Positions 1-18,528 are shown, numbered from the stretch's first letter. The stretch is 64,000 bases of DNA from Candidatus Blackburnbacteria bacterium (GCA_016183565.1 JACPEJ010000001.1:358479-422478), one strand, 5' to 3'. Program-made: numbers and translations. Notes: a model not told the origin generated them from the letters alone.

Positions 1-3
1 GCG

Positions 4-906
4 TTGCATAATAAATTCATATGGTGGGGAGATGTTTTGTTGCGCAACTATTTTCAACCATACTCCACTCAATTTCTTTTTATAAATGGTGATCTTAACC
101 CCAGGCACTCTCCTTCCGGAATTGGTCAGCTTTATAAATATGAAGCGCCTTTCCTTTTGCTAGGCGTGGCTTTCTTTCTCACTCGTCCTTTTGATAAAAA
201 AGTTAAATTATTTTTTGCATTTTGGTTATTAGCGTCTCCGATTCCTGCGGCTTTGACTCGCGATGGGGGTATGCATGCTACTCGGCTATTTTTTTGGGTA
301 GCTCCCCTGCTGTTTTTAGTTGCGTTGGGAATTTATTATTCTTTTGAGTTATTTAAAGGTTTAGGGCGCAAGATTTTTATATTGGCAACAGTGGGTGTTT
401 TTGTGATAAGTTTTCTTTTCTACCAACATAAGTTTTGGGTTCATTATCCATGGGATTCGGAGCGTTGGTGGCATGCTGGATACGAAGATGCAATAAAAAC
501 AGCAGTTGCCGAAAGTGGCAAATACGACAGGGTGATTATAAGTATGTCTTCAGAGCCTGCATACATATTCTTTTTGGGGTGGTCCCAGTTTGACCCAAAT
601 ATATTTCACCAAAATTATCAGGAAAGAGGTAAGGGAAAGTGGCTTCCTTTAGAAACCCTTCCCGGTTTTGGACAAATATCAAAACTAGAAAAGTATTATT
701 TCGGCTCAGCTGGAGTAGATCTTTACAGTCTTGCGCAAGTGCTACCTGATAGTAGTCTTTATCTTGCAACAGCAAAAGACGTAAATGTAAATTTGATTTT
801 GGAACCCGAACGGTTGCCGAAAGATTTAAAACTTATAAAGTCGTCGCCGTTCCCCTCAGGTGAACCAGCGTACTACCTCTTGACCAAAAACACTTTGACA
901 CAATGA
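4..906 (+). CDS. C-terminal part of a PMT/ArnT-like (GT39-type) GT-C membrane glycosyltransferase paralog, truncated at the 5' end by the window edge
   Basis: The frame is open from the window start. 'ASPIPAALTRDGGMHATRLFF' aligns with 'LAPIPAALTKGAGFAANR' (3813 gene), 'APLPAALSRDSVHAIR' (8900 gene) and 'APVAAALTFQSPHALR' (10589 gene). The C-terminal 'YEDAIK..YDRVII..EPAYIFFLGW..FDP' domain is shared with the tandem paralogs. The TGA stop overlaps the next gene's ATG (ATGA). Confidence 0.6.
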   Translation: MHNKFIWWGDVLLRNYFQPYSTQFLFINGDLNPRHSPSGIGQLYKYEAPFLLLGVAFFLTRPFDKKVKLFFAFWLLASPIPAALTRDGGMHATRLFFWVAPLLFLVALGIYYSFELFKGLGRKIFILATVGVFVISFLFYQHKFWVHYPWDSERWWHAGYEDAIKTAVAESGKYDRVIISMSSEPAYIFFLGWSQFDPNIFHQNYQERGKGKWLPLETLPGFGQISKLEKYYFGSAGVDLYSLAQVLPDSSLYLATAKDVNVNLILEPERLPKDLKLIKSSPFPSGEPAYYLLTKNTLTQ

Positions 907-2180
907 AATCCATAACAAAAATACTCTTGATGGCTTTTCTCCTTCGAGTTGTCTTCTCATTTGTAACTTGGCATCCTGATTTGAATAACCATGTAGATTG
1001 GGGGATTAGGTTTTGGCAATATGGACCGGCAAAGTTTTACAGTCCGCAAGCAAATGTTTGGAGTTTTACATGGCCTAATCAGCCTCCAGGAACTATTTAT
1101 ATGTTTGCAGGAGTAAGGAAGGTTTTTGAAGCTGTTTTTGCATTCTTTTGGTTTATAAATGTAAAAGTGCCACTTTTTCCTTCTGGTATTATGTTGTTTT
1201 TTGAAAGAACACTTTATCAGGCACTTTTGAAATTACCAGCTATACTTGCTGATGTGGGAATGGCCTATCTGATATATCGAATCTTTGCAAAAGTTGGCAA
1301 GGAACGTATTGGCATTTTGGGGAGTATCTTGTTCTTGGCAAATCCGGTTGTTTGGTATAACTCAACAATTTGGGGACAGACAGATGCAACTATAAACTTT
1401 TTTGGCCTCTTGGCTTTTGTTTTGCTTTTAGAAAGAAGGCTTACTTTAGCAGTTGCTAGCCTTCTATTGTCTTTTTACATAAAAGTGTCACTTTTGGTGT
1501 TTTTGCCGATTTTTGCCATTGTTGTGTGGAGGCAGAGATACTCAGTGAAGAATATTCTTACGTCTATTGTCGTGCCTGTGTTTCTTGTTGGGTTGGTTAC
1601 CATTCCCTTTTCGCGAGGGGAACCGTATGGTTGGTTGTATGAGATTTACAAAAGCAAAGTTTTTACACAACAGCTACAGGTAATTACTGCTAATGCATTT
1701 AATATCTGGGCAGCATTAACAGGCATCCACGAGCGACCTCACACGCTAATGCTTGGACCGCTCTCTTATCAAATGTGGGGCTTGATTTTGTTTTTGGGAG
1801 CTATGGTTTCGATATTCAAAATGGTTTATAGAAAACAAGATGCAACCTTGGTTTTCTGGGCGCTGTCTATTACTGCCTTTGCGTCATTTATGTTCTTAAC
1901 GAATATGCATGAGCGTTATATATACCCGTTGTTTCCCATGCTTACTATATTGGTAGCGCAGAGCAAGAAATTATTGCCATTGTATCTTGGTATTTCAGCA
2001 ATCAGTCTTCTTAACTTGTACAATTTTTGGTGGTATCCGAGGATAGAGGTGTTGATTTATGCAATGTCTGCTTTTGATAGGTTAGCTCCTCGAGTTTTGG
2101 GATTAGTAAGTTTTGTGCTCTTTGTGTTTTTATATCTCCGCTTTGTTAAAAATTCCCAAGCGGAAGGAAAGCATATTTAA
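903..2180 (+). CDS. polytopic membrane protein, GT-C-fold glycosyl/mannosyltransferase-like
   Basis: 425 aa with about 10 hydrophobic helices. The conserved first loop reads 'WHPDLNNHVDWGIRFW'. ATGA overlap with the upstream gene. Family assignment is uncertain. Confidence 0.45.
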   Translation: MKSITKILLMAFLLRVVFSFVTWHPDLNNHVDWGIRFWQYGPAKFYSPQANVWSFTWPNQPPGTIYMFAGVRKVFEAVFAFFWFINVKVPLFPSGIMLFFERTLYQALLKLPAILADVGMAYLIYRIFAKVGKERIGILGSILFLANPVVWYNSTIWGQTDATINFFGLLAFVLLLERRLTLAVASLLLSFYIKVSLLVFLPIFAIVVWRQRYSVKNILTSIVVPVFLVGLVTIPFSRGEPYGWLYEIYKSKVFTQQLQVITANAFNIWAALTGIHERPHTLMLGPLSYQMWGLILFLGAMVSIFKMVYRKQDATLVFWALSITAFASFMFLTNMHERYIYPLFPMLTILVAQSKKLLPLYLGISAISLLNLYNFWWYPRIEVLIYAMSAFDRLAPRVLGLVSFVLFVFLYLRFVKNSQAEGKHI

Positions 2181-2200
2181 GCAATAACTTCAATTATTAT

Positions 2201-3757
2201 ATGAAAAAAACTATTGTTTACTCTGGTTTTGTGTTGTTTTTTGCTCTTACTGCTATTGTTTATGGAGCTTTATTAAGCCGGACTCCTGTTTATCTTAATC
2301 AAGATGAATTGGGGTTTGCACTAAATGCTTATTCAATTGCACAAACGGGGTTTGATGATAATAATCGTTTTTTCCCTTTGTATTTTTGGCACCTGGGTGT
2401 TATGTGGGCAACTCCGATAATTGTCTACGCAACAGCATTAGTTCTTAGGTTTTTACCCTTAACAGAGGGGATGATAAGATTGCCAAGTGTTTTTGTAGGG
2501 CTTTTGGATATTTTCTTAGTGTGGATTCTGGCAGGTAAGATTTTTAAGGAGAAAATATATGTTTTTCTTGCTGGATTTTTGCTAGCCACAACCCCTGTGC
2601 ATTTTATCCATAGCAGAATTCTTTTGGATAATCTTTTTGTGATTCCATTCGTGATTTTGTGGCTTATCTTATTGTCACTGTTTATCAAGGAAGGGCGAAT
2701 TGTTGATCTTGGGCTTGGGTTTTTTGTGCTCGGAGTAGGGGTCCATAGTTATCATGCAGCAAAGATTATGATGCCTTTGTATATTTTTCTTACAATTTGG
2801 GTTTTATGGTCGCAGGTAAAAAACAACAAGAAGCTTCTTGGAGTTGTTTTGGTTTCTTTTTTACTTCCTCTTCTGCCTTTTATTCCTTGGCTTTCTAAGT
2901 ATCCCGATACGCTTATTGACCAAGTTAAGTATACACAGCTTTATGATGCAAAGTTAAATCCCTTGGTTGGAGTTTTGAGTCTTTTGACTCCAAGAAGTTT
3001 GTTGCACAGAGTAGACGTATATGTGAATTACTTTAATCCGAAGTTTCTTTTCTTGAGGGGTGATGCTAGTTTGATTCATTCAACACAGAAGACTGGAGTA
3101 TTGTTATTCCCATTGGCTATATTTGTTCCTCTTGGAATTTTTAGTGCCTTAAGGAAATGGGAACCACTTGAGAAAATTTTGGTTGCTGGTTTCTTTACTG
3201 CGCCAATAGCTGCAACGATTGCTGGAGATCATTATAGAATTTCGAGGGCTCTTTTTATTTTACCTTTTGCTGTAATCTTAGCTACTTATGGAGTTAAATT
3301 CTTGTTTTCCTTGCGAAGTAGAAAGTGTCAAGTACTTGGGCTAGTTTTACTTTTCGCAATTCCTCTGCAAGGTTTTTATTTCCTATATGATTATTTTACT
3401 GATTACAGGTTGCGTTCGTATTCGTGGTTTAATAACAATGTTCCTGGTGCACTTGAATCGATTATTAAATATGATAGGCAACAATCATTGGTTCATGTAT
3501 ATTTCGATAAAACAATAGACTTCTTACCTAGTTATTGGAAGTTTTATTTAATAAAACATGACAGGCGAGATCTTCTTTGGAAAACAGAGTTTTTTGACCC
3601 GAAGTTTGTTGATACAGAATTGCTTCCTCAAAACACCCTTTTACTATACAGTCACCATAATGTTGATGGGCAAAAGCAAAGCATAGGTCAATTTAATAAG
3701 CTGGATCCAATATTTGAGCCAGACGGAGTCCAAAAGCTATACCTCTACAAAAACTAG
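2201..3757 (+). CDS. divergent PMT/ArnT-like GT-C membrane glycosyltransferase paralog
   Basis: 'LNQDELGFALNAYSIAQTGFDDNNRFFPLYF' parallels the 'DE..GYNAYS..TGRDEWG' loop-1 motif of the tandem paralogs. 'FFTAPIAATIAGDHYRISRALFILPF' parallels the 'APIPAALT' motif. About 12 TM helices. Confidence 0.5.
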   Translation: MKKTIVYSGFVLFFALTAIVYGALLSRTPVYLNQDELGFALNAYSIAQTGFDDNNRFFPLYFWHLGVMWATPIIVYATALVLRFLPLTEGMIRLPSVFVGLLDIFLVWILAGKIFKEKIYVFLAGFLLATTPVHFIHSRILLDNLFVIPFVILWLILLSLFIKEGRIVDLGLGFFVLGVGVHSYHAAKIMMPLYIFLTIWVLWSQVKNNKKLLGVVLVSFLLPLLPFIPWLSKYPDTLIDQVKYTQLYDAKLNPLVGVLSLLTPRSLLHRVDVYVNYFNPKFLFLRGDASLIHSTQKTGVLLFPLAIFVPLGIFSALRKWEPLEKILVAGFFTAPIAATIAGDHYRISRALFILPFAVILATYGVKFLFSLRSRKCQVLGLVLLFAIPLQGFYFLYDYFTDYRLRSYSWFNNNVPGALESIIKYDRQQSLVHVYFDKTIDFLPSYWKFYLIKHDRRDLLWKTEFFDPKFVDTELLPQNTLLLYSHHNVDGQKQSIGQFNKLDPIFEPDGVQKLYLYKN

Positions 3758-3812
3758 TTTCTTTGCCCCTTTTTCTTAATTGAATGTATAATCGTAGTAG
3801 TAGAGTTGCTAC

Positions 3813-5549
3813 TTGTATACCATGCTTTGTAACCTACGCAAGTATAATGTCTCGCACATACTGCTTTTAAGCAGCATTGTCTTGCTGGCATTTCTTTTGC
3901 GTTTTGTTGGAATTTCTTCTTACCCGGTTGGTTTTACACCGGATGAGGCTTCTTTTGGGTATGATGCTTATTCACTTTTGAAGACTGGGAGGGATCAGTG
4001 GGGGGAATCATGGCCTTTAACTTTTCGCTCGTTTGGAGATTTTAAACTTCCTCTTTATGGTTATTTGACCGTTCCCTCGATCGCTCTTTTTGGCCTTAAT
4101 GAGTTTGCGGTTAGGTTGCCCAATGCTATTTTTGGCACTCTAGCGATTTTGGCAACATACCTTATGGTTGGACAAATGTTCAGAGACAGAAAAATACAAT
4201 TGTTTTCTGCGTTTTTGTTAGCAATTTCTCCTTGGCATGTTTCACTATCAAGAGGGGCTTTCGAGGCAAACCTGACAACCTTTTTTATGCCTTTTGGTAT
4301 TTGGGCTTTTTTGAAAGGTGTAAAGAAACCGCATTGGATGGTTGTTTCGGCAATAGCGTTTGGGCTCAACCTGTTTTCTTATCATTCTGCCCGACTTATA
4401 ACACCTCTAATAGTTCTTTCATTGTTGTGGTTTAATACTACACTCCTACGAACAGATCATTCCCTTTGGGAATGGAGGAGTGTAGGAAAACACAAGTGGG
4501 GATTAAGTGTTTTCAGCGCTTTTTTGGTGATTGCGGTCTATACAGTGTTTTTTGGGGCTGGTGCAAGAGGAGCGGATATTGCAATATTTAATCCAACGGA
4601 CAAATGGTCTGCAGTTTCTGATAGGCGGTACGAAGCTTTTTTGCAAGGGCTTCCAGATGGCGTGGCACGAGTTTTTTCGAACAAAGTGGTTTATGTGATT
4701 GATAATTTTGTTAACAATTACTTTTCTTATTTATCGCCACAATTTCTTTTTACTCAAGGAGCAGGAGAGTGGACTTATGGAATGATTCCAGGGTGGGGGG
4801 TGCTTTATTTAATTGAACTACCGTTTTTGTTATTTGCTTTATGGGGTGTTTTTGCAAGGCGTCCCCTTGCAGGATTGTCAAGGGGACGCCTTATTAAGGT
4901 TATATTGATCTGGATTCTACTTGCACCAATCCCGGCAGCCTTAACTAAAGGAGCGGGGTTTGCGGCAAATCGTGTTTCAGTAATGATGCCGGCGGTTCAA
5001 GTGTTATCAGCATACGGCGCAGTGGTATTGTGGGATGTTATGCAAAAGAGATGGCCAAAGTATAAGCAAGCATTGCTAGCTTGTTACCTTGTTAGTGTCT
5101 TAGTAAGTTTAGGTTTCTTTTTGGAAGACTATCGTTATCACGCACCTAAAAGTGCTGCTGGCGCTATGCTTTATGGAAGACGTGATGCTGTTGATTTTGC
5201 CGAGAGTTTGCAGGATCGATATGGGCGGATTGTTTTTTCAAAGAGTTTGTCTGAGCCCCAAATTTATGTTGCTTTTTATGGAGCTTGGGATCCCAAAGAC
5301 TATCAGGAGCAAGCACAAGGTTGGTTGCGATACGAGAAAGAATGGCTTCTTTTTGTTGATCAACTTGGTGAATATGGCCTAGGTAAGTACGTTTTTAGTG
5401 GTGTAAACAATATTAGAGAGAAGAATGAAAGCAACATTGTTTTGGTTGGTAAGCCCGAGGAATTTCGAAAAGAAGATAATATTTTGAAGGCAATATATTA
5501 TCCTGGCGGTAAGCCGGCAATTTTATTAACAGAATTTAATCCAAATTAA
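3813..5549 (+). CDS. PMT/ArnT-like (GT39/PMT_2-type) GT-C membrane glycosyltransferase, paralog 1 of the tandem array
   Basis: Motifs 'GFTPDEASFGYDAYSLLKTGRDQWGESWPLTFRSFGDFKLPLYGY' and 'LLAPIPAALTKGAGFAANR'. The first in-frame ATG is at 3822; 3813 is a TTG. Confidence 0.65.
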   Translation: MYTMLCNLRKYNVSHILLLSSIVLLAFLLRFVGISSYPVGFTPDEASFGYDAYSLLKTGRDQWGESWPLTFRSFGDFKLPLYGYLTVPSIALFGLNEFAVRLPNAIFGTLAILATYLMVGQMFRDRKIQLFSAFLLAISPWHVSLSRGAFEANLTTFFMPFGIWAFLKGVKKPHWMVVSAIAFGLNLFSYHSARLITPLIVLSLLWFNTTLLRTDHSLWEWRSVGKHKWGLSVFSAFLVIAVYTVFFGAGARGADIAIFNPTDKWSAVSDRRYEAFLQGLPDGVARVFSNKVVYVIDNFVNNYFSYLSPQFLFTQGAGEWTYGMIPGWGVLYLIELPFLLFALWGVFARRPLAGLSRGRLIKVILIWILLAPIPAALTKGAGFAANRVSVMMPAVQVLSAYGAVVLWDVMQKRWPKYKQALLACYLVSVLVSLGFFLEDYRYHAPKSAAGAMLYGRRDAVDFAESLQDRYGRIVFSKSLSEPQIYVAFYGAWDPKDYQEQAQGWLRYEKEWLLFVDQLGEYGLGKYVFSGVNNIREKNESNIVLVGKPEEFRKEDNILKAIYYPGGKPAILLTEFNPN

Positions 5550-5563
5550 TTCTTCTTGCTTTA

Positions 5564-7201
5564 ATGTTTAAAAAGTCAACTTTATTAATAATTGCTTTGT
5601 TGATAGTTGTTGTTGCTCCGACCTTCGCAAGAATGCTTAGGCCTGGTATTTATTCGATGCAGGACTATCACTTTTTTAGACTTTACGAATTTGACCGTTG
5701 TGTTCGGGATTTACAAATTCCTTGCCGGTGGTCTCCGGATGCAGGACTTGGTTTTGGTGAACCATTGTTTAATTTCTATGGACAGTTGGCCTATGTGCCA
5801 GGAGCAGTACTTCATTTGTTGGGTGTTTCGCTTACTGATTCTTTGAAATTACTTTTTATTTTTTCTCTTTTCGGTTCGGCTTTAACTATGTTTTTTTTGG
5901 CACGACAAATTTGGGGGAATAATTCTGCTGCATTCCTATCGTCTGTGCTGTATGTTTGGGCGCCTTACAGAGCAATTGATGTTTGGGTGCGAGGTGCCCT
6001 TCCAGAGGCTTTGAGTTTTGTGATATTTCCGCTTGTTGTATATAGGTTTAACTTACTTGTTAAAAGAGGGAAAGCTTTTGATTTGTTATTGTTTAGTGTT
6101 GTTTTTGCCCTTCTTATACTGACTCACAATCTTTCCACATTTATGTTTGGCTTTTTTCTATTGGGTTGGATTTTTTACAAATTAATATCTTTGAAAAAAT
6201 TTAGAGTTTTACCAAAGATTTTGGGAGGATTTATTCTTTCAGGGCTTTTGTCTGCTTTTTACCTCTTGCCTGTTGTTTTTGAATCGCAGTTTGTGCGTCT
6301 TGAAAATATGACTCAAGGATATTTTGATTTCAGAGGACATTTTGCTGGTATTTGGCAACTTTTGTTTTCAAGATTTTGGGGATATGGTGCTTCGCTTTTT
6401 GGGCCGAATGATGATTTAAATATTTCAATTGGACACCTTCAATGGATTATTCCTCTTTTAGCTTTGGTTGTTTGTGTTGTAAGAAGTAGAAAAAATTTGG
6501 GTAGACTTGTGATGTTGGTTGGTATGGGTTGGTTCTTACTGTTTTTGACACATAACAAGTCTTCTTTTATTTGGGAGAGTTTTCCACAAATGGCCTTTAT
6601 TCAGTTTCCTTGGAGATTTTTAGCTGTTGCTGTTTTTGCTTTTTCGTTAGCTGGAGGAGCTTTTGTGATAACTTTTGGCAGGTATGCTAAGTTTATGGTT
6701 TTAGGTCTTAGCGTGTTTGCAGTTTTTTTAAATTATTCGTTTTTCAAAGAAGATATTTGGAGGAATGTGGGTGATAAAGACATTACTAGTGGAATTTATT
6801 GGGAGGAGCAAACTAGGGCTTCTATACAAGATTATTGGCCTCGGTATGGAAATATTCCTCCTGAGTCTGTGCCCTCTGACTTTGATAACGCCAAGTTAGT
6901 GGATAAGAAAAGTAACGTTGTTTCGTACTATGTTACTACTCAAGAAAAACAAGAGGTCCAATTTCCTGTTACTTATTTTCCGGGATGGGTTGCTAGAATA
7001 GAAAGTACAAAATATGAAACACATCCAACGGGGGAGTATGGTTTGGTAACAAGCACGTTGCCGCAGCTTAACAATACTCTTGTTACTTTGGAATTTAGGG
7101 ATACGTTTGTAAGATTGATTGGTAATGTGGTTAGCATGGTGTCGTTTGTAGCTTTAGTGGTGGTGTTCGGCATTTTTAGAAAAAGAACACATGCAACGTA
7201 A
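5564..7201 (+). CDS. YfhO/PTPS-related-like GT-C-fold membrane protein
   Basis: The N-terminal motif 'DYHFFRLYEFDRCVRDLQIPCRWSPDAGLGFGEPLFNFYGQLAY' follows the D..Q/H..lP.W..G.P pattern of YfhO / 6-pyruvoyl-tetrahydropterin-synthase-related membrane proteins. About 13 TM helices, then a C-terminal extracytoplasmic domain and a terminal TM. Confidence 0.45.
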   Translation: MFKKSTLLIIALLIVVVAPTFARMLRPGIYSMQDYHFFRLYEFDRCVRDLQIPCRWSPDAGLGFGEPLFNFYGQLAYVPGAVLHLLGVSLTDSLKLLFIFSLFGSALTMFFLARQIWGNNSAAFLSSVLYVWAPYRAIDVWVRGALPEALSFVIFPLVVYRFNLLVKRGKAFDLLLFSVVFALLILTHNLSTFMFGFFLLGWIFYKLISLKKFRVLPKILGGFILSGLLSAFYLLPVVFESQFVRLENMTQGYFDFRGHFAGIWQLLFSRFWGYGASLFGPNDDLNISIGHLQWIIPLLALVVCVVRSRKNLGRLVMLVGMGWFLLFLTHNKSSFIWESFPQMAFIQFPWRFLAVAVFAFSLAGGAFVITFGRYAKFMVLGLSVFAVFLNYSFFKEDIWRNVGDKDITSGIYWEEQTRASIQDYWPRYGNIPPESVPSDFDNAKLVDKKSNVVSYYVTTQEKQEVQFPVTYFPGWVARIESTKYETHPTGEYGLVTSTLPQLNNTLVTLEFRDTFVRLIGNVVSMVSFVALVVVFGIFRKRTHAT

Positions 7202-8903
7202 TTCTTTTGCTCTTTTGTTCCTGATTGTTATTTTTGGATTGGGGTTGCGCCTTTATAATATTTCCGATGTGCCCCCTAGTCTTAATTGGGATGAGGTAAG
7301 TCATGGTTATAATGCTTATTCTATTCTTAGGACAGGAAGAGATGAGTGGGGGAAGCAGTTTCCGGTGACTAATTTTCGAGCGTATGGTGATTACCCTTTA
7401 CCGTTAAATTTGTATTTTCTTATTCCGTCTGTTGCGGTTTTTGGTTTAACTGAGTTTGGAATTCGGTTTCCTCATGTTATTTTAGGCACACTCACAATTA
7501 TCAGCTCGTTTTTTCTTGCTTACGGGGTAGCTAGGAGGCGGGTAGTAGGTTTTCTAGTTGCTCTTTTGGTAGCTATTGAGCCTTGGTATGTTTTTCCCTC
7601 GCGCTTTGTTCTTCAGTCTAACATGTCGGTGTTTTTAATCATCACGAGTATGGCTTTGTTTTTTAATCGTGAGAAACACAGGATTTTTTTACCATTAGCA
7701 GCCTTTTTGTTGGGGCTGACCTTATTTGCTTATCACAGTACCAGAATTTTCTCACCACTTCTTTTATTAGCAGTTATTTTTATATACAGACCTGACTTGT
7801 TTAAATGCTTGAAGAAGGAGAGCGTATTGTCGATGATCTTGTGGGGTGTGGCTTCTGTATTTTTTTTATCCTTGCCTGTGATACTTTTGAATAATGAAGC
7901 GCGAGCAAGAGCAAATTGGGTTTTTTTAATTGATCAAGGAGCTGTCAATAAGATTATTGAGAGCAGGAGTAATTCTCACCTTCCTCCAATTCTTGTTAAA
8001 GCGGTTTATAATCGGCCTGTTTATTTTATTAAAGCGTTCTCACAGCGCTATGTTGAATACTTTTCTCCGGAATTTCTCTTCTATAAAGGGGGAACTCACT
8101 ATCAATTTAGTGTGCCGGACACAGGATTATTGTACAAAATAAATTTGCCGTTTTTCTACCTAGGCTTATTCTGTATTATATGTGCTGCTCTTAAGCGTAA
8201 AAAGGATTACATTTTTGTAACTGTGTGGTTTTTATTAGCTCCAATTCCAGCAAGTATAACCCAAGAACATTTTGCCGTGCTGCGTTCTACAACCTTCTTA
8301 CCTCTGCCGCAGCTTTCTGTAGCATTAGGATTTTTGTTTGGACTAGATTTAATAAAAAGAAAGTTTGGAAGGGGCGAGGTATCTGGAAAGGTTGCTGTTA
8401 CACTTTATGTTGCACTCCTTTTAATTGAGTTAGAAGGATATTTAACTGTATTGTTTACTGAGTATAATCAAAAATATTCTTGGGCATGGCAGTATGGTTA
8501 TAAACAAGTAGCAGAGTATGCGAAGCAGAGATATGGAAATTATGACAAATTTATTGTTACTAAAAAGTATGGCGAACCACACGAGTTTTTCCTTTTCTAT
8601 TTGCATTATGATCCGCGAAAATATATGAACGACCTTGGTACTGTTCGATACTTTAAGTCGGATTGGTATTGGGTAGATGGGTTTGATAAGTTTTATTTTC
8701 TCAATGACTGGAATGTAGTAGGAGACACAGGTACAGATGGAGGTACAGAATTTGTGTTGGAGAGTGGTGGAACTGTGGATTGCAGGATGTTACGGTGTTT
8801 GATGATTACTAGTCCAGGGAATTATCCCTTGGGATGGCGATTGGTCGAAACTATTTATTTTCTTGACGGAAAGACTGCTTTTGAGATTTTGGAAAACATA
8901 TGA
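7191..8903 (+). CDS. PMT/ArnT-like GT-C membrane glycosyltransferase, tandem paralog 2
   Basis: Motifs 'LNWDEVSHGYNAYSILRTGRDEWGKQFPVTNFRAYGDYPLPLNLYF', 'LLAPIPASIT', and the C-terminal 'YGYKQVAEYAKQRYGNYDKFIVTKKYGEPHEFFLFYLHYDPRKY'. The start overlaps the upstream stop. Confidence 0.65.
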   Translation: MQRNSFALLFLIVIFGLGLRLYNISDVPPSLNWDEVSHGYNAYSILRTGRDEWGKQFPVTNFRAYGDYPLPLNLYFLIPSVAVFGLTEFGIRFPHVILGTLTIISSFFLAYGVARRRVVGFLVALLVAIEPWYVFPSRFVLQSNMSVFLIITSMALFFNREKHRIFLPLAAFLLGLTLFAYHSTRIFSPLLLLAVIFIYRPDLFKCLKKESVLSMILWGVASVFFLSLPVILLNNEARARANWVFLIDQGAVNKIIESRSNSHLPPILVKAVYNRPVYFIKAFSQRYVEYFSPEFLFYKGGTHYQFSVPDTGLLYKINLPFFYLGLFCIICAALKRKKDYIFVTVWFLLAPIPASITQEHFAVLRSTTFLPLPQLSVALGFLFGLDLIKRKFGRGEVSGKVAVTLYVALLLIELEGYLTVLFTEYNQKYSWAWQYGYKQVAEYAKQRYGNYDKFIVTKKYGEPHEFFLFYLHYDPRKYMNDLGTVRYFKSDWYWVDGFDKFYFLNDWNVVGDTGTDGGTEFVLESGGTVDCRMLRCLMITSPGNYPLGWRLVETIYFLDGKTAFEILENI

Positions 8904-10570
8904 AAATGAAATACATCCTTATTGTAATAGTTCTTCTTGGTTCAGTTTTTAGGTTGTGGGGTCTTTCCGAGAATCCTCCTCACTTGACGAGTGACGAAGC
9001 GGCGCTTGGCTATAACGCTTATTCTATTTTAAAAACTGGGCGGGATGAGCACGGTGAATTATTCCCAATAGTTTTTAAATCATTTGGGGACTGGAAACCG
9101 GGGCTTTATGTGTATCTTACAGTACCGTTTGTAGCGACCCTTGGTTTAACAGAACTTGCAGTAAGATTACCAGCGGCTATAGCTGGTGTCTCGGCAATAG
9201 TTCTTCTGTTTTTGATAACACACCAACTTTTTGATAACAAAAAGGTTGCTCTTTTTGCAAGTTTCTTTTTAGCTATTTCTCCTTGGCATATACAGTTTTC
9301 GCGGGGGGCATGGGAGGCTGGTATTGCTTTAACACTTACCCTTTTAGGAATTTACTTTTTCCTTCTAGTGGTTAAGGGCAGACCACGCATGCTTATTGTT
9401 GCGGGTTTATTTTTTGCCTTAACCCTTTGGACATATCAGGGTGCAAAGCTTGCAACTGCCGTAGTGGGGCTTGGACTTTTGATCTGTTTTTGGAAGGAAC
9501 TCTCGAAAGTTTCGCTAAAGATTTTAGGCAAAAGTTTAGCAATTGGTTTTTTGGTTGCCTTACCAGTTTTGGTGGGTTTTTGGCAGGGGAAAACAGGTAG
9601 GCTTGAGGTTTATAGTATTTTTTCGTACAGACGGCCTGAGGATTATGTGCAAGCTATTCTTGGCCAAGAACGTGTGAGCCGTGATTCTTGGCAATATATT
9701 CTTTACCACTCCGAATCTCTAAATTTTGTACGGGGCATATTGGGCAGGTGGTTTAATTACTATTCAGGACGATTTTTGTTTTTCGATGGTGATTGGACTA
9801 ATCCTCGTCATGCTGTCCCTAATTCAGGGAATTTATTGATAATAGATAGTATAATGCTCGTCCTTGGTCTCTTTGCCTTGTCACGGGTAGGTGCAAAGAA
9901 GGAAGCGCTTTTTGTTTGGTTTTGGATTATTTTTGCTCCATTGCCAGCAGCTTTGTCTCGAGACTCGGTTCATGCTATACGTACGTTAAATATGGTAATT
10001 CCGCTAACAATTTTATTGGCGTTGGGTGCAAATGCTGTCTGGGATCAAAGAAAGAGAGTTGGGAAATTGCTGCCTGTGTTGTTGGTAGTTTTCAGTGGGA
10101 TCTATATAGCAAACTATGTGTATTATCTTGATCAATACTGGATTCATGGGCCAAAGAGAAATTCCAAATATTGGCAGTATGGTTATAAGCAGATGGTTGA
10201 GAAACTCACTCCACTTCAACAAAAATATGATGAGATAGTTGTTATTCAGGATTATACGCAACCGTATATATTTTTCCTTTTCTACCAAAAGTACGATCCT
10301 GTAAAGTATCAAGGAATGGTCAGTCAAGTTTATATGCCTAACAAATATGGGGATGTTGGTCTTGTTTCGGGATTGGATAATATTACGTTTAGGGATATAA
10401 ACTGGCAAGATGATCGTGGTATGGTTGGGAAACTTTTTGTTGTAGATCCGATTCGTGTTCCTATTGTGGATTCAAGTAGCCCGGCGGAATTTAAATTAGT
10501 TGATCAGGTGAATTATTTAAATGGAGATGTGGCATTTCGTATTTTAGAAATCCTTGGGGAAAAGAGATAA
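8900..10570 (+). CDS. PMT/ArnT-like GT-C membrane glycosyltransferase, tandem paralog 3
   Basis: Motifs 'LTSDEAALGYNAYSILKTGRDEHGELFPIVFKSFGDWKPGLYVY', 'IFAPLPAALSRDSVHAIR', and the C-terminal 'YGYKQMVEKL..YDEIVVIQDYTQPYIFFLFYQKYDPVKY'. ATGA overlap with the upstream gene. Confidence 0.65.
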   Translation: MKMKYILIVIVLLGSVFRLWGLSENPPHLTSDEAALGYNAYSILKTGRDEHGELFPIVFKSFGDWKPGLYVYLTVPFVATLGLTELAVRLPAAIAGVSAIVLLFLITHQLFDNKKVALFASFFLAISPWHIQFSRGAWEAGIALTLTLLGIYFFLLVVKGRPRMLIVAGLFFALTLWTYQGAKLATAVVGLGLLICFWKELSKVSLKILGKSLAIGFLVALPVLVGFWQGKTGRLEVYSIFSYRRPEDYVQAILGQERVSRDSWQYILYHSESLNFVRGILGRWFNYYSGRFLFFDGDWTNPRHAVPNSGNLLIIDSIMLVLGLFALSRVGAKKEALFVWFWIIFAPLPAALSRDSVHAIRTLNMVIPLTILLALGANAVWDQRKRVGKLLPVLLVVFSGIYIANYVYYLDQYWIHGPKRNSKYWQYGYKQMVEKLTPLQQKYDEIVVIQDYTQPYIFFLFYQKYDPVKYQGMVSQVYMPNKYGDVGLVSGLDNITFRDINWQDDRGMVGKLFVVDPIRVPIVDSSSPAEFKLVDQVNYLNGDVAFRILEILGEKR

Positions 10571-10588
10571 ATTAGAATTTAAAAACAA

Positions 10589-12277
10589 ATGAGAATTTGT
10601 CTTCAACTATATATGAAACGTTTAATTTGGCTAATTATAATTCTTGCTGCAATACTGCGTTTTTATCGTTTGGATGTTTTGCCTGCGTTGAATGCTGATG
10701 AGGCAGCGATAGGATATAATAGTTATTCACTTATTAAAACAGGTAATGATGAGCATGGGAACTTATGGCCAGTTCATTTTCAGTCTTTTAATGACTATAA
10801 ACCGGGATTGTATTTTTACTTGGTTTTACCTTTTGTCGCGTTTTTTGGTTTGAATGAGTGGGCAGTAAGAATACCTGGGGCTTTTCTTGGGGTTTCTACG
10901 GTTTTTGTAGTTTGGCTTCTTGTGAAAGAGTTGTTTCCAGATAGAAAGTGGCTGCCAGAGTTATCAGCATTTTTTCTTACTATTTCTCCTTGGCATATTC
11001 ATTTTTCTCGAGGGGGATGGGAAGTGAATGTGGCGACATTTTTTATAACCGTGGGGGTTTGGGGATTTATTAAAGGGGTTAGAGATAACAGATGGTTTTG
11101 GCTTTCGAGTTTAGCTTTTGTTGCCTCACTGTATACTTATCATACTGCGAGGATTGTTGTTCCATTATTGATATTGGGTTTTTTGTTTATTTTTAAAAAA
11201 GCTCTTTTTTGGGATAGTAAGGATGCTGTTTTTAAATTCTTGAAAGTTGGTGTACCCAAGCATTTTTTCTTGAGTGTTGTGGTAGGGGTATTGTTTTTAG
11301 TGCCTTTAGTAAGAGGTCTTTTAGGACCGGCAGGTGTTTCTCGTGTTGCGGGTGTTGGGCTTTTTGCTGATACTGGTCCTTTTTGGCTAACAAATCAGCA
11401 ACGTGGGGAACATGAAGATTTTCAGGGTAAATTTGCTTTACTTTTACACAATAAACCAATCAACTATGGTATTGCTTTTTTGGAAAATTATGCTGGGCAT
11501 TTTTGGGGAGAATTTCTTTTCTTGTCAGGTGATGAAATTCAGCGAAACAAGGTTCCAGAAATTGGCCAAATGTACTTGTTTGATCTTTTGTTTTTGGCTC
11601 TGGGTTTAATAGTTATTGCAAGAAGTCCTAAAAACTGGGGAGTTGTAATCTTGTGGATTATGGTTGCTCCTGTTGCAGCGGCCCTTACGTTTCAGTCCCC
11701 CCATGCCTTAAGAGCTGAGAATATGGTAGTCCCTTTGACGATGATTAGTGCGTATGGTGGATATTGGTTATGGGGGAAGTGCAGACCCTCGGACAGAGGG
11801 AAGTTAGGCAGGTTAGGGAAGTTATGTGAGATACTGCTTGTAGTTTGGGTATTATGGGATTTTTCTCGATATTTACACCAGTATTATTTTCATATGGCGA
11901 AGACTTATGATTACTCTTCCCAGTATGGAATGAAGGAATTAGTACAATATATTACTCACAATAATAGCGAGAATAGGAGAGTGGTGGTAACTAATAGGTA
12001 TGATCAGCCGTATATTCTTTTCTTGTTCTATTTAAAATATCCGCCGGAGCAGTTTCAAAAGGAGCATGTTTTGACCCCAAGAGATAAATTTGGTTTTTCC
12101 ACAGTGGAGGGGTTTGGGAATTACACTTTTCGAGAGATTGGAAATTGGGATGAGATAAGGCGAGATTATCCGGGTGCTTTAATAGCTGGGACAGAGGACG
12201 AGATCCCGGGTGGAAATATACTTAGCACTATTACCTTTCCAAGTGGGAGAACGGTGTTTAAGATTGTAGCTAACTAG
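10589..12277 (+). CDS. PMT/ArnT-like GT-C membrane glycosyltransferase, tandem paralog 4
   Basis: Motifs 'LNADEAAIGYNSYSLIKTGNDEHGNLWPVHFQSFNDYKPGLYFY', 'IMVAPVAAALTFQSPHALR', and the C-terminal 'QYGMKELVQYI..RRVVVTNRYDQPYILFLFYLKYPPEQF'. Confidence 0.65.
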   Translation: MRICLQLYMKRLIWLIIILAAILRFYRLDVLPALNADEAAIGYNSYSLIKTGNDEHGNLWPVHFQSFNDYKPGLYFYLVLPFVAFFGLNEWAVRIPGAFLGVSTVFVVWLLVKELFPDRKWLPELSAFFLTISPWHIHFSRGGWEVNVATFFITVGVWGFIKGVRDNRWFWLSSLAFVASLYTYHTARIVVPLLILGFLFIFKKALFWDSKDAVFKFLKVGVPKHFFLSVVVGVLFLVPLVRGLLGPAGVSRVAGVGLFADTGPFWLTNQQRGEHEDFQGKFALLLHNKPINYGIAFLENYAGHFWGEFLFLSGDEIQRNKVPEIGQMYLFDLLFLALGLIVIARSPKNWGVVILWIMVAPVAAALTFQSPHALRAENMVVPLTMISAYGGYWLWGKCRPSDRGKLGRLGKLCEILLVVWVLWDFSRYLHQYYFHMAKTYDYSSQYGMKELVQYITHNNSENRRVVVTNRYDQPYILFLFYLKYPPEQFQKEHVLTPRDKFGFSTVEGFGNYTFREIGNWDEIRRDYPGALIAGTEDEIPGGNILSTITFPSGRTVFKIVAN

Positions 12278-12279
12278 AT

Positions 12280-13155
12280 ATGAAAAAAAGTCGAGCGAAG
12301 ATATCAGTAGTTTTAGCAACATTCAATGAAGAAAAAAACATAGGTGTTTGTCTTGAATCGATTCGACAACTGGCAGATGAGATAGTAGTGGTTGATGGTT
12401 CTTCAACTGATAGAACAAGAGAGATAGCTAAGTCATATGGCGCTCATGTTATAAAAGTAAAGAACTATCCTATTTTTCATATTAATAAACAGAGGGCGTT
12501 AGAGAGTGCAACTAGTGAGTGGATACTTCAGCTTGATGCTGATGAACGTGTGACAAAAGAACTGGCAGACGAAATATTGAAGGTAGTGAATATGAGTAAT
12601 GATGAGATAGAGGCTTATCAGAAACAGTTAGAGAATCGAGCACTATTTTTAAGACATCAGCAAATACTTACAGAGAGAGATGGTACTATTGGTGCAAAAG
12701 ACGGAGAATATGCAGCGTTTTTCCTTCCACGGTTGAATTATTTTCTTGGTGGTTACTTAAGACATGGAGGGACTTATCCTGATGGGGTGATTAGGTTGGT
12801 TAAGCGGGGGAAAGCACATTTTCCTGCGAAGAGTGTTCATGAGCAGATTGTTGTTGATGGTAAGGTTGGTTGGCTAGGGAACGATCTTTTACATTTGGAT
12901 TCCCCGAATTTTAAACGATATTTAGAGAGAAACAGTCGTTACGTAGACTTAATTAGAGATGAAATGAAGCAAGAAAAAGTAGGTAAGAACTTTCTTCAGT
13001 TTGTAAATTACTTTTTAGTTAAACCGTTTGGGTGGTTTTTTCTGACGCAGTTTAGACATAAGGGAATTTTGGATGGTTACCGGGGAGTTGTTTTCTCGTT
13101 TTTTTCTGCCCTGAGATTCCCTAGGGCATATTGGAGGTACATAAAGGAAAGTTAA
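12280..13155 (+). CDS. GT2-family (GT-A fold) glycosyltransferase
   Basis: 'ISVVLATFNEEKNIGVCLESI...EIVVVDGSSTDRTREIA...LQLDADE' is the classic GT2 signature with DxD. Confidence 0.7.
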   Translation: MKKSRAKISVVLATFNEEKNIGVCLESIRQLADEIVVVDGSSTDRTREIAKSYGAHVIKVKNYPIFHINKQRALESATSEWILQLDADERVTKELADEILKVVNMSNDEIEAYQKQLENRALFLRHQQILTERDGTIGAKDGEYAAFFLPRLNYFLGGYLRHGGTYPDGVIRLVKRGKAHFPAKSVHEQIVVDGKVGWLGNDLLHLDSPNFKRYLERNSRYVDLIRDEMKQEKVGKNFLQFVNYFLVKPFGWFFLTQFRHKGILDGYRGVVFSFFSALRFPRAYWRYIKES

Positions 13156-13171
13156 AAATGAAAAGTCAAAA

Positions 13172-14209
13172 ATGAAAGTTTTTATTGACGAACAAGTGTT
13201 AAATATCAGACACACGATTCGGGGTATTGGGGTGTATACTAGAAATCTTGTTGATGCTTTAAAAAAGCAGAAAGACATAGTTTTAGTTTCTGACGGGAGA
13301 GCGGCAGATATAATCCACTATCCATATTTTGACTTGTTTTTTAGTACTTTAAAAGTTCAGGGTGGGGAAAAGACTATAGTTACTATCTACGATACCATTC
13401 CGCTTATTTATCCGCAACATTATCCATCGGGAATTAAAGGAAAATTAAACTTTATTAGGCAAAAGAAAGCACTTCAGAAGATAGATGCTGTAGTTACAAT
13501 ATCGGAGACATCTAAGAAGGATATTGTACGATTTTTAGATGTACCGCAAGAAAAGATCTATACGGTTTATCTAGCACCTGGTGCAATTTTCAGGAAAGTG
13601 GAAGGTGGAAAGTGGAAAGTGGAAGTTGCAAAACGTTATGCTCTTCCAGAGCGTTTTGTCCTATATGTTGGTGATGTAAACTACAATAAAAATTTGAGTG
13701 GATTGGCCCAAGCATGTGTGCTGGCAAAGCTGCCTTTGGTTATTGTAGGTAAGCAAGCGGCCACTGCTGAATTTGATAAGCAACACCTGGAAAACAGACC
13801 GTTTGCCTCTTTCTTAGAGAAGTATGGAGGTAATTCGAATATTAGGCGTTTGGGTTTTGTGCCAGATGAGGATTTGGTGTTAATTTATAATTTGGCGACA
13901 GTGTATTGCCAACCATCTTTTTACGAAGGGTTTGGGCTTCCTGTTTTAGAGGCGATGGCTTGTGGTTGTCCTGTTGTTGCTTCTCGGACACAAGCGTTGG
14001 TAGAAATATGTGGTGACAGTGCGCTTTTTGCTGATCCGAAGGATCCTCGGGATATTGCTGTTAAGATTAAAACTGTGTCTGGAAACAGAAAATTGGCCAG
14101 TTCATTAGGTAGAAGTGGTATTGAGAAAGTAAAGCAGTTCTCATGGGAGAAACTTGCTTATGAAACAACTAAAGTATATACAACGATTCTTAAACAAAAT
14201 AGACACTAA
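13172..14209 (+). CDS. GT4-family (GT-B fold, group 1) glycosyltransferase
   Basis: Carries the C-terminal 'EGFGLPVLEAMACGCPVVASRT' E-x7-E-type GT4 motif. The N-terminal domain reads 'GIGVYTRNLVDAL'. Confidence 0.75.
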   Translation: MKVFIDEQVLNIRHTIRGIGVYTRNLVDALKKQKDIVLVSDGRAADIIHYPYFDLFFSTLKVQGGEKTIVTIYDTIPLIYPQHYPSGIKGKLNFIRQKKALQKIDAVVTISETSKKDIVRFLDVPQEKIYTVYLAPGAIFRKVEGGKWKVEVAKRYALPERFVLYVGDVNYNKNLSGLAQACVLAKLPLVIVGKQAATAEFDKQHLENRPFASFLEKYGGNSNIRRLGFVPDEDLVLIYNLATVYCQPSFYEGFGLPVLEAMACGCPVVASRTQALVEICGDSALFADPKDPRDIAVKIKTVSGNRKLASSLGRSGIEKVKQFSWEKLAYETTKVYTTILKQNRH

Positions 14210-15347
14210 ACAAATTTTACTACTCTTTTTGGTTTGGAGAGTTTGGACTTTTGTCTTTGCCTTACTTGGGATAATTTTAGTTCCTTTATATAGTCGGGAC
14301 TTTTTTGGGGGTGGATTAGACCACTACCTTGAAAATCCTGTGTTTTGGAGTTGGGCTAATTTTGATGGTGAGCATTATATTTCCTTAGTCCAACATGGTT
14401 ATCAGAAATTAACTCATTCCTTTTTCCCGTTTTATCCGTTGGTTGTGAGGATTGCTTCTACGGAAAGTATTTCTAATATAACTGCGGTTGGAGTTTTGAT
14501 TTCAAGCGTATCTTTGTTTGTGGGTATTTGTTTATTTTGGAGACTTGTATGTGTTGATTTTTCACCAAAGGTGGCTTTGTATTCGCTTGTTTCTCTTCTT
14601 GTTTTTCCAACGTCTTTCTTTTTTGGGGCTTTTTATACAGAGTCTTTGTTTTTCTTGCTTGTTGTTGGTTCTTTTTTCGCTGCCAGGAAGTCTAACTGGT
14701 TCTTGAGTGGGATCTTGGGTGCTCTAGCGAGTTCTACGCGAATAATTGGGATTTTTCTTTTGCCGGCTCTTATTGTTGAGTGGTTATTACAAGGTAGAGA
14801 CGAGTCTTTAAAAAAGTCTCTAGGTAAGAGAATATTGCAGTTTCTGTGTATCTTCCTTGTACCTTTGGGCTTGGGGATATATATGTTTTATTTGTATAGA
14901 ACTACGGGTAATTGGCTGAGTTTTTATACGGACCTTTCCCCTTTTGGGGAGCAACGCGGGGGTGGTACAATCGTATTTCTTCCTCAAGTGTTGTGGCGAT
15001 ATGTAAGGATGATTTTTACTGTTGATAAGACAAGTTTGTTCTATCTAACACTTCTGATGGAGTTTTTGACTGGTATCGGTGTATTGTTTCTGGGGGTGTG
15101 GGGGTGGATGAAAAACGTGCGTTTGTCGTACTTGGTTTTTATGGGGTTGGGTTATATACTTCCTACTTTGACGGGAAGTTTTAGTTCCCTTCCGAGATAT
15201 GTTTTGGTATTGTTTCCTTTGTTTATTATCATGGGCATGTTTTTGTCTAAACAGAGAATGTTTGTGCGTATGGCAATTCTTTCTCTGTTGACTGTTTTAT
15301 TGATAATTGAAACAATGCTCTTTGTGCGCGGTTATTGGGTAGGATAG
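14160..15347 (+). CDS. PIG-V/Gpi18-like (Mannosyl_trans2, GT76-type) GT-C membrane mannosyltransferase-like protein
   Basis: 'WANFDGEHYISLVQHGYQKLTHSFFPFYPLVVR' matches the W-D..H/Y-F..IA..GY...AFFPLYP hallmark of GPI mannosyltransferase 2-like proteins. About 10 TM helices. ATG 14160 is given as the start; the ORF track begins at an upstream TTG (14154). Either way it overlaps the end of the GT4 gene by about 50 nt. Confidence 0.5.
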   Translation: MKQLKYIQRFLNKIDTKQILLLFLVWRVWTFVFALLGIILVPLYSRDFFGGGLDHYLENPVFWSWANFDGEHYISLVQHGYQKLTHSFFPFYPLVVRIASTESISNITAVGVLISSVSLFVGICLFWRLVCVDFSPKVALYSLVSLLVFPTSFFFGAFYTESLFFLLVVGSFFAARKSNWFLSGILGALASSTRIIGIFLLPALIVEWLLQGRDESLKKSLGKRILQFLCIFLVPLGLGIYMFYLYRTTGNWLSFYTDLSPFGEQRGGGTIVFLPQVLWRYVRMIFTVDKTSLFYLTLLMEFLTGIGVLFLGVWGWMKNVRLSYLVFMGLGYILPTLTGSFSSLPRYVLVLFPLFIIMGMFLSKQRMFVRMAILSLLTVLLIIETMLFVRGYWVG

Positions 15348-15348
15348 T

Positions 15349-16611
15349 ATGAAATTTACAAAGATATTATTCCTGTATTTTTTGTCTTTGGCCGGAAGCT
15401 CGTTTTTTGCGGGAAGTATTATTATGGTGCTTGGTACAAATTTTCATAACCTTGGCCAGTTGGTCTACCACTTTCTGGCCGGCAGACTTTTAGGCAAAGT
15501 TTTCTATGGAGACCTGGCGGCCCTAATTTCTATTTTTGGTCTTCTTGCAATAATTCAACAAGCTTTTGGTTTAACAATTATTAAGTTTGTTGCATCAGCA
15601 AAAAGTCCCGAGGAAGCTAATAACTTTACCAAGTGGGTGTGGTTCTGGAGTATTTGGGTAGGTGTTATAGTTTTTGTCTTGCTTTTGTTTTCCTCACCAT
15701 TTATAGTCCAATTTTTAAACATTAGTCAACCGCAGGTAATTTATATATTTATTCCCGTCGTTCTTGTTGGCTTTATCTCAAATACTGGTAGAGCGCTTTT
15801 ACAAGGTTTTACTAGATTTACCCAGTTTGTTGTTAGTATGGTTGCAGAAGTAGGAGCAAAGATTGTTGCTATGGTACTTCTTGTATATCTCGGCTACTCA
15901 CTTTTTGGGGCAGTAGCAGCACTTCCTGTGGGAGCTGTGGTTGGATTTGTTATTGTCTGGTTGGGGTTGAGGAAAAACCTTAAAGGACCAAGAGCCAAGA
16001 TGCCCAATCTCTCCCCTCTTTTTGCATATTCATTTCCCGTGTTTATTCAAAGTATTGCTCTTACTTCAATGTATTCATCAGATATTTTGCTTGCTAAGCA
16101 CTTTTTTACCGCAGAGCAGGCAGGACTTTATGCTGCCTTGGCAAAACTTGGAACGATTGCATTCTTCAGCTCTTCTCCGATAACGAGTGTGATGTTTCCA
16201 ATAATTGCGAGAAATCATACGCATGGTCAGCCCTATCACAGAATTTTTTACCTTAGTGTCGCTTTAGTTACACTGATTTCATTAGCCGTAATAATCTCCT
16301 ATATATTCCTTTCTGGTTTTATTATCGGGATTCTTTTTGGCAAAGATTTTGTTGAAGGCGCCCCGATTTTATGGTGGTTTAGTCTTTATATGTTCCTATT
16401 GGGGGTCGGAATGCTTTTTGTTCATTTTTATTTGTCGATTGGTAAAACAAAAGTCGTTTGGTTGTTTGCCGCAGCAGCACTTACTCAAATAGTTCTGATT
16501 CTGGTGTTTCACGCCACCTTATTAAGTGTTATTCAAATGTCAATAATTGCAGCAGCTTTACTCGTTCTGGGTCTTCTTCTATACTTTCCTTACCACCACA
16601 GACAAAGATGA
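15349..16611 (+). CDS. Wzx-like polysaccharide / lipid-linked oligosaccharide flippase (MOP superfamily)
   Basis: 420 aa with 12-14 TM helices and the typical 'polysaccharide biosynthesis protein' topology. Short positively charged loops ('GLRKNLKGPRAKMPN') lie between two 6-TM halves. Overlapping boundaries on both sides. Confidence 0.55.
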   Translation: MKFTKILFLYFLSLAGSSFFAGSIIMVLGTNFHNLGQLVYHFLAGRLLGKVFYGDLAALISIFGLLAIIQQAFGLTIIKFVASAKSPEEANNFTKWVWFWSIWVGVIVFVLLLFSSPFIVQFLNISQPQVIYIFIPVVLVGFISNTGRALLQGFTRFTQFVVSMVAEVGAKIVAMVLLVYLGYSLFGAVAALPVGAVVGFVIVWLGLRKNLKGPRAKMPNLSPLFAYSFPVFIQSIALTSMYSSDILLAKHFFTAEQAGLYAALAKLGTIAFFSSSPITSVMFPIIARNHTHGQPYHRIFYLSVALVTLISLAVIISYIFLSGFIIGILFGKDFVEGAPILWWFSLYMFLLGVGMLFVHFYLSIGKTKVVWLFAAAALTQIVLILVFHATLLSVIQMSIIAAALLVLGLLLYFPYHHRQR

Positions 16612-18486: not shown

Positions 18487-18528
18487 TTTTATATAAGTAA
18501 GAGTGTAACAATATGTTATGCTAGGTGT

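Follow-up and report, generated by a model that had tools for sequence, protein, structure and literature searches.

An ancient, collinear array of GT-C glycosyltransferase paralogs in Microgenomates with a putative role in envelope glycan assembly

We analysed a 64,000-nucleotide stretch of DNA (hereafter the window; GCA_016183565.1, JACPEJ010000001.1:358479-422478), which matches Candidatus Blackburnbacteria (Microgenomates/Patescibacteria), and found that its first 12,277 nucleotides carry six paralogous genes, A to F, of one GT-C glycosyltransferase (GT) family of the PMT_2/ArnT-like kind. The six genes are true homologs that arose by ancient duplications and have been retained, and arrays of the same composition and order recur across the sampled Microgenomates. 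We consider it probable, at roughly 60%, that the paralogs act as sequential or position-specific polyprenyl-phosphate-sugar transferases that together would build one conserved envelope glycoconjugate.

Six homologous genes in one array

Open reading frame (ORF) calls placed eight ORFs, all co-oriented on the + strand, within positions 1-12277, in agreement with an earlier note made from the sequence of this DNA (Table 1; genes other than the paralogs are named by their first position). The note had also stated that the genes mostly overlap at their stop and start codons, which was an overstatement: 3 of the 7 junctions overlap, by 4-11 nucleotides (906/903, 7201/7191 and 8903/8900), and the remaining 4 are gaps of 14-55 nucleotides. 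Paralog F is followed after a 2-nucleotide gap by a GT2 gene at 12280. Paralog A, given in the note as 4-906 and as cut by the window edge, lies in frame 1, which is open from base 1. An independent assembly with identical sequence (L086; homologous loci bear L numbers throughout) holds the full-length gene at 622-2391, encoding 589 amino acids (aa) with a PMT_2 match and its own loop-1 motif, GDELDVGYHAYS; the truncation is therefore a window-edge effect only.

BLASTP comparisons among the five full-length paralogs gave E values of 1e-14 to 1e-94 over about 400-580 aa at 23-37% identity, and identity to paralog E was 24-37% in a whole-length alignment of all six proteins. The 300-aa fragment of A matched four full-length copies at 2.5e-15 to 7.1e-32 and the divergent paralog B at 1.6e-06 (30% over 164 aa). 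All five full-length copies passed the Pfam gathering score of PMT_2, PMT or both: PMT_2 (PF13231, cut-off 26.1 bits) scored 40 bits in B, 47.2 in C, 37.4 in E and 35.1 in F, and PMT (PF02366, cut-off 22.7) scored 34.3 bits in D and was also above its cut-off in E. The three motifs quoted in the note, in loop 1, at 'hhAPhPAALT' and in the C-terminal region, were found as described. An Asp-Glu pair follows the first transmembrane helix in 6 of 6 copies (A being read from L086), and its Glu is invariant across 37 homologs; by analogy with related enzymes the pair is presumably catalytic. Because this pair and other invariant residues are kept in all copies, none of them looks like a dead enzyme.

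The possibility that the genes are unrelated and resemble one another through the compositional bias of transmembrane helices was rejected as practically negligible. The E values reach 1e-94, the GT-C fold was confirmed (see below), and the conserved motifs sit in soluble loops and in the C-terminal domain, so that transmembrane composition offers no explanation for them. A direct-repeat search for gene conversion between the copies returned only motif-coding matches of 20-53 nucleotides at 70-95% identity, the longest stretch, of 53 nucleotides, being 70-83% identical. With no inter-copy DNA repeat longer than this, there is no sign of recent gene conversion. Furthermore, the copies share 23-37% identity with one another compared with 45-64% with their positional orthologs in other genomes, as expected of the ancient, retained duplications that the note had proposed.

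Fold and family membership

A structural model of paralog E matched the multi-pass GT-C fold of ArnT, STT3/PglB/AglB, PMT and the ALG enzymes. Comparison of the model with solved GT-C structures gave values of 25.3 for ALG12, 23.1 for ArnT, 22.1 for STT3B, 21.9 for AglB, 19.8 for Pmt4, 19.2 for Pmt2, 17.3 for AftD and 16.5 for PglB, at sequence identities of 9-15%; the nearest solved protein by sequence was ArnT (5ezm, profile E 1.3e-4). The family thus combines the multi-pass membrane fold and the acidic motif in the first extracytoplasmic loop that mark the GT-C superfamily with membership of Pfam PMT_2/PMT, the full-length A included (PMT_2 match on record).

The assignment could not be carried further to a named subfamily. 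Protein O-mannosyltransferase proper (GT39, NCBIfam NF058602) scored at best 19.2 bits against a cut-off of 800, ArnT proper (GT83, NF009784) 19.8 bits against 567, and the Agl23 subfamily (TIGR03663) at best 53.4 bits against 126, and the Pfam scan revealed no MIR or PMT_4TMC domain. The 'GT39-type' or PMT label of the note was consequently not upheld: in addition to the low score, the model is structurally no closer to PMT than to ALG12, ArnT or STT3, and 'PMT/ArnT-like' is right at the superfamily level only. In GenBank, the paralog E protein has a 100% identical counterpart on a 686-kb contig, entered as 'glycosyltransferase family 39 protein [Candidatus Blackburnbacteria bacterium]'; in our judgement the 'family 39' name probably goes back to no more than a generic PMT_2-type model. 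Upwards of 4,400 homologs of this protein were found, and those that carry a name belong exclusively to Patescibacteria or unclassified bacteria.

A family-specific C-terminal domain

The earlier note had recognised an additional soluble domain at the C-terminus of the family, and our results support this for all copies except paralog B. In B, where the note had called the domain weakly recognisable, comparison of the C-terminus with the domain profile gave an hhalign E of 0.42, that is, no detectable relationship. A profile of the domain found 2,399 representatives (50% identity clusters, E <=1e-3) among 1.84 billion proteins. In every full-length protein (about 490-670 aa) among the best 150 matches listed, the domain lies at the extreme C-terminus, and the shorter proteins among these look like fragments; this makes the domain a characteristic feature of the GT-C family described here. 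A Pfam search with the isolated domain of 18 members returned nothing meaningful. It is a family-specific alpha/beta domain that forms its own sequence family outside the current Pfam models, and by homology with ArnT, AglB and STT3 it probably lies outside the membrane.

Conservation of the array across Microgenomates

To place the array in its lineage we scanned relatives at one genome per species, which yielded at least 595 relatives, and read lineage names from the best 80 loci; the named loci among them belong to Woesebacteria, Shapirobacteria, Amesbacteria, Daviesbacteria and other Microgenomates. A profile hidden Markov model of the family then served to count copies in 47 species-level loci, each 20 kb or longer. 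Per 21.6 kb these held a median of 5 copies with a range of 3-7 (3 copies in 2 loci, 4 in 5, 5 in 21, 6 in 14 and 7 in 5). The note had called six in a row exceptional; within this lineage they are not, since collinear arrays of five to seven copies are usual in the sampled Microgenomates. It follows from these arrays that we are dealing with a lineage-wide conserved operon.

A neighbour-joining tree of 109 proteins from 19 loci and the window resolved the copies further. Clades C, D and F contained exactly one protein from each of the 19 loci, clade E did so too, with one additional protein, and 18 of the 19 loci contributed to clade A, two of which supplied two copies. Clade B occurred in only 3 of the 19 tree loci, and a confident ortholog of it was found in 3 of 45 large loci. 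There are thus five ancient orthogroups in the fixed collinear order A-C-D-E-F, among which D, E and F always co-occur; the core stands at the same coordinates in nearly every locus. The 1:1 orthology and collinear order indicate that the duplications predate the divergence of these candidate phyla and that each copy was kept separately.

Four homologous neighbourhoods (L001, L002/L003, L004 and L005) show the same operon. Its order is GT2, GT2, a PMT_2 type, the 903 type, a PMT_2 type, PTPS_related (in L004) and three PMT types, followed by GT2, GT4, a Mannosyl_trans2-type GT-C, a Polysacc_synt flippase, GT2, GT4 and DUF5667. Judged from gene content and order, the array represents the standard, putative surface-sugar pathway of the Microgenomates lineage.

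Some loci carry an extra family member upstream of the array on the opposite strand (L005 3362-6699 (-), L018 2028 (-), L037 2479 (-) and similar cases). With only about 27-34% identity to any copy in the window, it may be a further orthogroup that the window lacks. In addition, many metagenome-assembled genome records that carry the operon (L007, L008, L012, L013, L015, L019 and others) are titled 'uncultured Gammaproteobacteria bacterium' and one 'Clostridia bacterium'; these names look like placeholders or mis-assignments.

Proposed pathway and alternative explanations

GT-C enzymes act on the non-cytoplasmic side of the membrane, where their donors are sugars linked to polyprenyl phosphate or polyprenyl diphosphate. 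A polyprenyl-phosphate-linked sugar is likewise the presumed donor of the paralogs by analogy, and we infer for them the donor type, the topology, the sequential action and the acceptor as follows. A Dol-P-Man-synthase-like GT2 of the operon would load a sugar onto polyprenyl phosphate at the cytoplasmic side of the membrane. This lipid-linked sugar, perhaps together with a primer built by the GT4s, would then be flipped across, with the MOP flippase as the candidate. On the outer face each paralog, acting through its loop-1 Asp-Glu site, would attach one particular sugar or form one particular linkage, and orthogroups A, C, D, E and F, together with the ALG6/GT87-like, YfhO-like and PIG-V-like GT-Cs, would carry out non-redundant steps towards one envelope glycoconjugate. 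Lipoglycans, glycolipids and O-glycans carried by envelope proteins all come into consideration as the product. Strict 1:1 orthology, fixed order, and the lack of decay and of recent exchange argue for distinct, non-redundant roles.

Several points weigh against a stepwise pathway to a single glycoconjugate. Five enzymes that each serve a different protein acceptor, or the subunits of a hetero-oligomer, could show the fixed order and the 1:1 orthology just as well. Sequence identity with solved GT-C enzymes reaches only 11-15%. The likeness of the GT2 at 12280 is to soluble SunS/GmaR-type enzymes and not to lipid-phosphate sugar synthases, and the 64-kb window yielded neither a priming phosphoglycosyltransferase nor a ligase. 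The operon status, furthermore, derives solely from gene spacing, the promoter and terminator consensus scans over positions 1-19200 having been uninformative (no better than shuffled sequence).

The strongest competitor, which we nevertheless regard as unlikely, has each paralog transfer a lipid-phosphate-linked sugar to Ser/Thr-rich regions of a different set of secreted or membrane proteins, as protein O-glycosyltransferases such as PMT or streptococcal PgfM1/PgtC2 do, rather than act in sequence on one glycan. The loop-1 Asp-Glu motif is a PMT signature. It is present in the paralogs, Pfam PMT is above cut-off in D and E, and the operon closes with a secreted DUF5667 protein whose (Pro-Thr)n linker has S/T/P-rich counterparts in some orthologs; there is also a monoderm precedent in which a GT-A and GT-C pair glycosylates Ser/Thr-rich disordered regions (PMC12041528). 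However, this linker is not kept in all orthologs, the 19 bits against 800 for protein O-mannosyltransferase and the missing PMT_4TMC and MIR domains speak against the PMT family, and the structure is closer to ALG12 and ArnT than to PMT. Moreover, a glycan made in several steps is what one would expect from five invariant orthogroups accompanied by further GT-C types, GT4s and a flippase.

That the copies form hetero-oligomers like Pmt1-Pmt2, with some subunits regulatory or scaffolding, seems quite improbable: the tight packing with 4-11-nucleotide overlaps at three junctions suggests co-translation and D, E and F always co-occur, yet every copy retains the Asp-Glu motif and other invariant residues and none appears to be a pseudo-enzyme. 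Less probable still, and in our view hardly tenable, is a fast-evolving redundant set for surface variation in phage or host evasion, like the Gtr-type O-antigen modification modules. Such a role would account for copy numbers that vary from 3 to 7 between loci and for the sporadic B type, but the core copies show strict 1:1 orthology, 45-64% identity across orders and a fixed order, with no trace of recent duplication or gene conversion.

Comparison with known systems

ArnT (GT83), the undecaprenyl-phosphate-L-Ara4N:lipid A transferase, shares with the paralogs the PMT_2 core and a soluble C-terminal domain after the last helix; it is their best sequence match among solved structures, and their donor is presumably also a polyprenyl-phosphate sugar. 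It differs in having 13% identity, a C-terminal domain of a separate sequence family, and one gene instead of five to seven paralogs. To our knowledge Patescibacteria lack lipid A, the ArnT acceptor. PMT (GT39) is similar in the loop-1 Asp-Glu pair, in the Pfam PMT match of two copies and in the GenBank 'family 39' name, whereas the paralogs lack PMT_4TMC and MIR and have a different C-terminal domain.

The closest functional analogy to 'one paralog, one position' would be the Rhizobium set RgtA/RgtB/RgtC(/RgtD), in which several ArnT-like GT-C paralogs each add one galacturonic acid (GalA) at a defined position of a glycolipid. The polyprenyl-phosphate sugar donor of that system is made by the GT2 RgtE. 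RgtA and RgtB add GalA to Kdo (PMC4402001). The Rhizobium set comprises three to four paralogs as opposed to five to seven and acts on lipopolysaccharide in a diderm, and we liken the two by function, not by sequence. Mycobacterial synthesis of lipomannan, lipoarabinomannan and arabinogalactan (PimE, MptA-C, EmbA-C, AftA-D and Ppm1) offers sequential GT-Cs outside the membrane, a lipid-anchored glycan started by cytoplasmic GT4s, and donors from a GT2. Its genes, by contrast, are mostly dispersed (except embCAB), its GT-Cs belong to different families, and nothing in the window points to a phosphatidylinositol glycolipid as acceptor.

The ALG pathway in the lumen of the endoplasmic reticulum (ER; ALG3/9/12/6/8/10, DPM1/ALG5 and RFT1) likewise combines GT4s, a MOP-type flippase, a Dol-P-Man-synthase-like GT2 and many GT-Cs, and the 903 family of the array matches ALG6 as the 14154 orthologs match the PIG-V family. 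The likeness is at fold level only, however, at 7-14% identity, and no oligosaccharyltransferase was identified. In the monoderm streptococcal Pgf/GtrB-PgtC2 systems, a GT-A makes the undecaprenyl-phosphate sugar and YfhO-type GT-Cs transfer it to Ser/Thr-rich extracytoplasmic regions (PMC12041528). The array operon has corresponding genes in the YfhO/PTPS-like 5564 and a PgfS-like GT2, although the six paralogs are PMT_2-type, not YfhO-type, and the streptococcal systems have one or two GT-Cs.

Full-text searches of the literature found no paper on this Microgenomates GT-C array. The enzyme class, the fold, the donor logic and a generic GenBank annotation are already known, and no new enzyme class is involved; what distinguishes the array is its own C-terminal domain and an unusually large, ancient and collinear set of paralogs. 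Patescibacteria have very small genomes, yet about 10 kb of diverged copies of one enzyme are kept in fixed order. Such retention suggests that the product, a putative surface glycoconjugate, is central to the biology of the lineage, where it could serve envelope integrity or attachment to hosts. The five orthogroups and the C-terminal domain offer concrete targets for biochemistry and glycomics. More tentatively, and with some doubt, the operon may constitute a lineage-wide extracytoplasmic glycan assembly line of Microgenomates, with at least nine GT-Cs in one operon, among them the five fixed PMT_2-type orthogroups and the ALG6/GT87-like, YfhO-like and PIG-V-like enzymes, fed by a Dol-P-Man-synthase-like GT2, GT4 primers and a MOP flippase. 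If so, it would exceed every described bacterial pathway in its number of GT-Cs, and either convergence or distant kinship would make it the prokaryotic counterpart to the ALG pathway of the ER lumen or to the synthesis of mycobacterial lipoglycans; its product would be an envelope polymer that defines these episymbiotic bacteria.

Interleaved and downstream genes

The genes between and behind the paralogs are listed in Table 1. Their predicted functions and spacing make the array part of a conserved operon that also holds GT-Cs of three other types, GT4s, a MOP flippase and a Dol-P-Man-synthase-like GT2.

Table 1. Features of the array, of the genes that follow it and of the remaining window
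Feature	Coordinates	Strand	Remarks
Paralog A	1..906	+	C-terminal 301 codons; 589 aa in genome; orthogroup in 18/19 tree loci
Different GT-C type, ALG6/GT87-like	903..2180	+	no Pfam match of its own
Paralog B, divergent, sporadic	2201..3757	+	PMT_2 E 6e-10; 23-30% identity to other copies
Paralog C	3813..5549	+	PMT_2 E 3.6e-12; one ortholog per locus, 19/19, same relative position
PTPS_related/YfhO-like GT-C inside array	5564..7201	+	PF10131 25.6 bits vs cut-off 26.4
Paralog D	7191..8903	+	Pfam PMT 34.3 bits vs cut-off 22.7; one ortholog per locus, 19/19
Paralog E, copy chosen for modelling	8900..10570	+	
Paralog F	10589..12277	+	PMT_2 E 2e-8; one ortholog per locus, 19/19, always last of array
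GT2 (GT-A) glycosyltransferase	12280..13155	+	Glycos_transf_2 E 1e-19
GT4 (GT-B) glycosyltransferase	13172..14209	+	Glycos_transf_1 E 9e-29; position conserved
PIG-V/Mannosyl_trans2-like GT-C	14154..15347	+	weak PMT_2 match; orthologs with PF04188
MOP-family (Wzx-like) flippase	15349..16611	+	Polysacc_synt E 5e-25; NCBIfam MOP flippase match below cut-off
Candidate polyprenyl-phosphate hexose synthase (GT2)	16458..17396	+	nearest structure 5mlz
Second GT4	17332..18486	+	Glycos_transf_1 E 1e-34
Secreted DUF5667 protein, 3' end of cluster	18529..19098	+	DUF5667 E 2e-10; signal peptide, Pro/Thr linker
Further PMT_2-type GT-C, outside six-paralog family	19116-21278	-	
Further PMT_2-type GT-C, outside six-paralog family	25654-27741	+	
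Further PMT_2-type GT-C, outside six-paralog family	42268-43899	+	
ORF without Pfam match	46360-47061	-	233 aa
Further PMT_2-type GT-C, outside six-paralog family	48294-50252	+	
ORF without Pfam match	51712-52971		419 aa
Possible fifth further PMT_2-type protein	53857-55428	+	hhalign 68% probability
ORF without Pfam match	56619-60197	+	1192 aa
ORF without Pfam match	60514-62565	-	683 aa
Second DUF5667 protein	62504-63064	+	

The earlier note had taken 903 and 5564 to be GT-C enzymes of other types, and profile comparisons bear this out. The 903 protein is a membrane protein of 425 aa that has no Pfam or NCBIfam match of its own. A profile of its orthologs matched yeast ALG6 (6snh) at E 6.5e-6 over residues 27-392, single orthologs matched Pfam GT87 at 2e-6 and Alg6_Alg8 at 0.002, and hhalign related the 903 family to the paralog family with 84% probability. 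Orthologs stand at the same position in L004, L005 and L002, and by these matches the family is a predicted bacterial ALG6/GT87-like GT-C conserved inside the array. For 5564, PTPS_related fell just under its cut-off; its ortholog in L004 is 49% identical and has a PF10131 match on record, and hhalign gave 64% probability against the paralog family.

Directly after the array, a GT2 is found in L001, L002, L004 and L005, as at 12280; the nearest solved structures to the 12280 protein are GmaR and SunS. The 14154 orthologs in L001 (52%) and L004 (43%) have PF04188 Mannosyl_trans2 matches. The 14154 ORF overlaps the preceding GT4 gene by 56 nucleotides, and its true start probably lies downstream of 14154. 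Among solved structures, that of the Pyrococcus furiosus Dol-P-Man synthase (5mlz, E 3.7e-15) is nearest to the second GT2, 16458; GtrB and ArnC come next. Of the NCBIfam models, PgfS and PpgS match this GT2 best, each scoring under its cut-off. It is the evident candidate for the enzyme that would supply the lipid-phosphate sugar donor. As called mechanically, this ORF overlaps the flippase gene by about 150 nucleotides; the GT2 domain begins at residue 56 and the orthologs have about 258 aa, which places the true start probably near 16620.

The 18529 protein has a signal peptide followed by the linker PTSAPTPTPTPTPT. Its DUF5667 orthologs close the cluster in L002, L004 and L005. In L015, L025, L032 and L054 there are additional DUF5667 homologs on the downstream side of the array; the S/T/P-rich linker is variable and is not conserved in all of them. 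The protein is a possible acceptor, or O-glycosylation substrate.

The wider 64-kb glycan island

An Rfam scan of the whole window gave zero matches. Positions 1-64000 are almost wholly devoted to glycan synthesis, with at least 13 GT-C genes, 7 GT2s and 6 GT4s, accompanied by 7 S-adenosylmethionine methyltransferases (one of the FkbM type), 2 nucleotidyltransferases, an HddA-like sugar kinase, an epimerase, an asparagine synthase and a GDPD phosphodiesterase. The GC skew has a positive sign over the entire window. The four further PMT_2 proteins have 543-720 aa, and the one of 720 aa is extended at the C-terminus by about 200 aa that gave faint galactose-binding-like matches.

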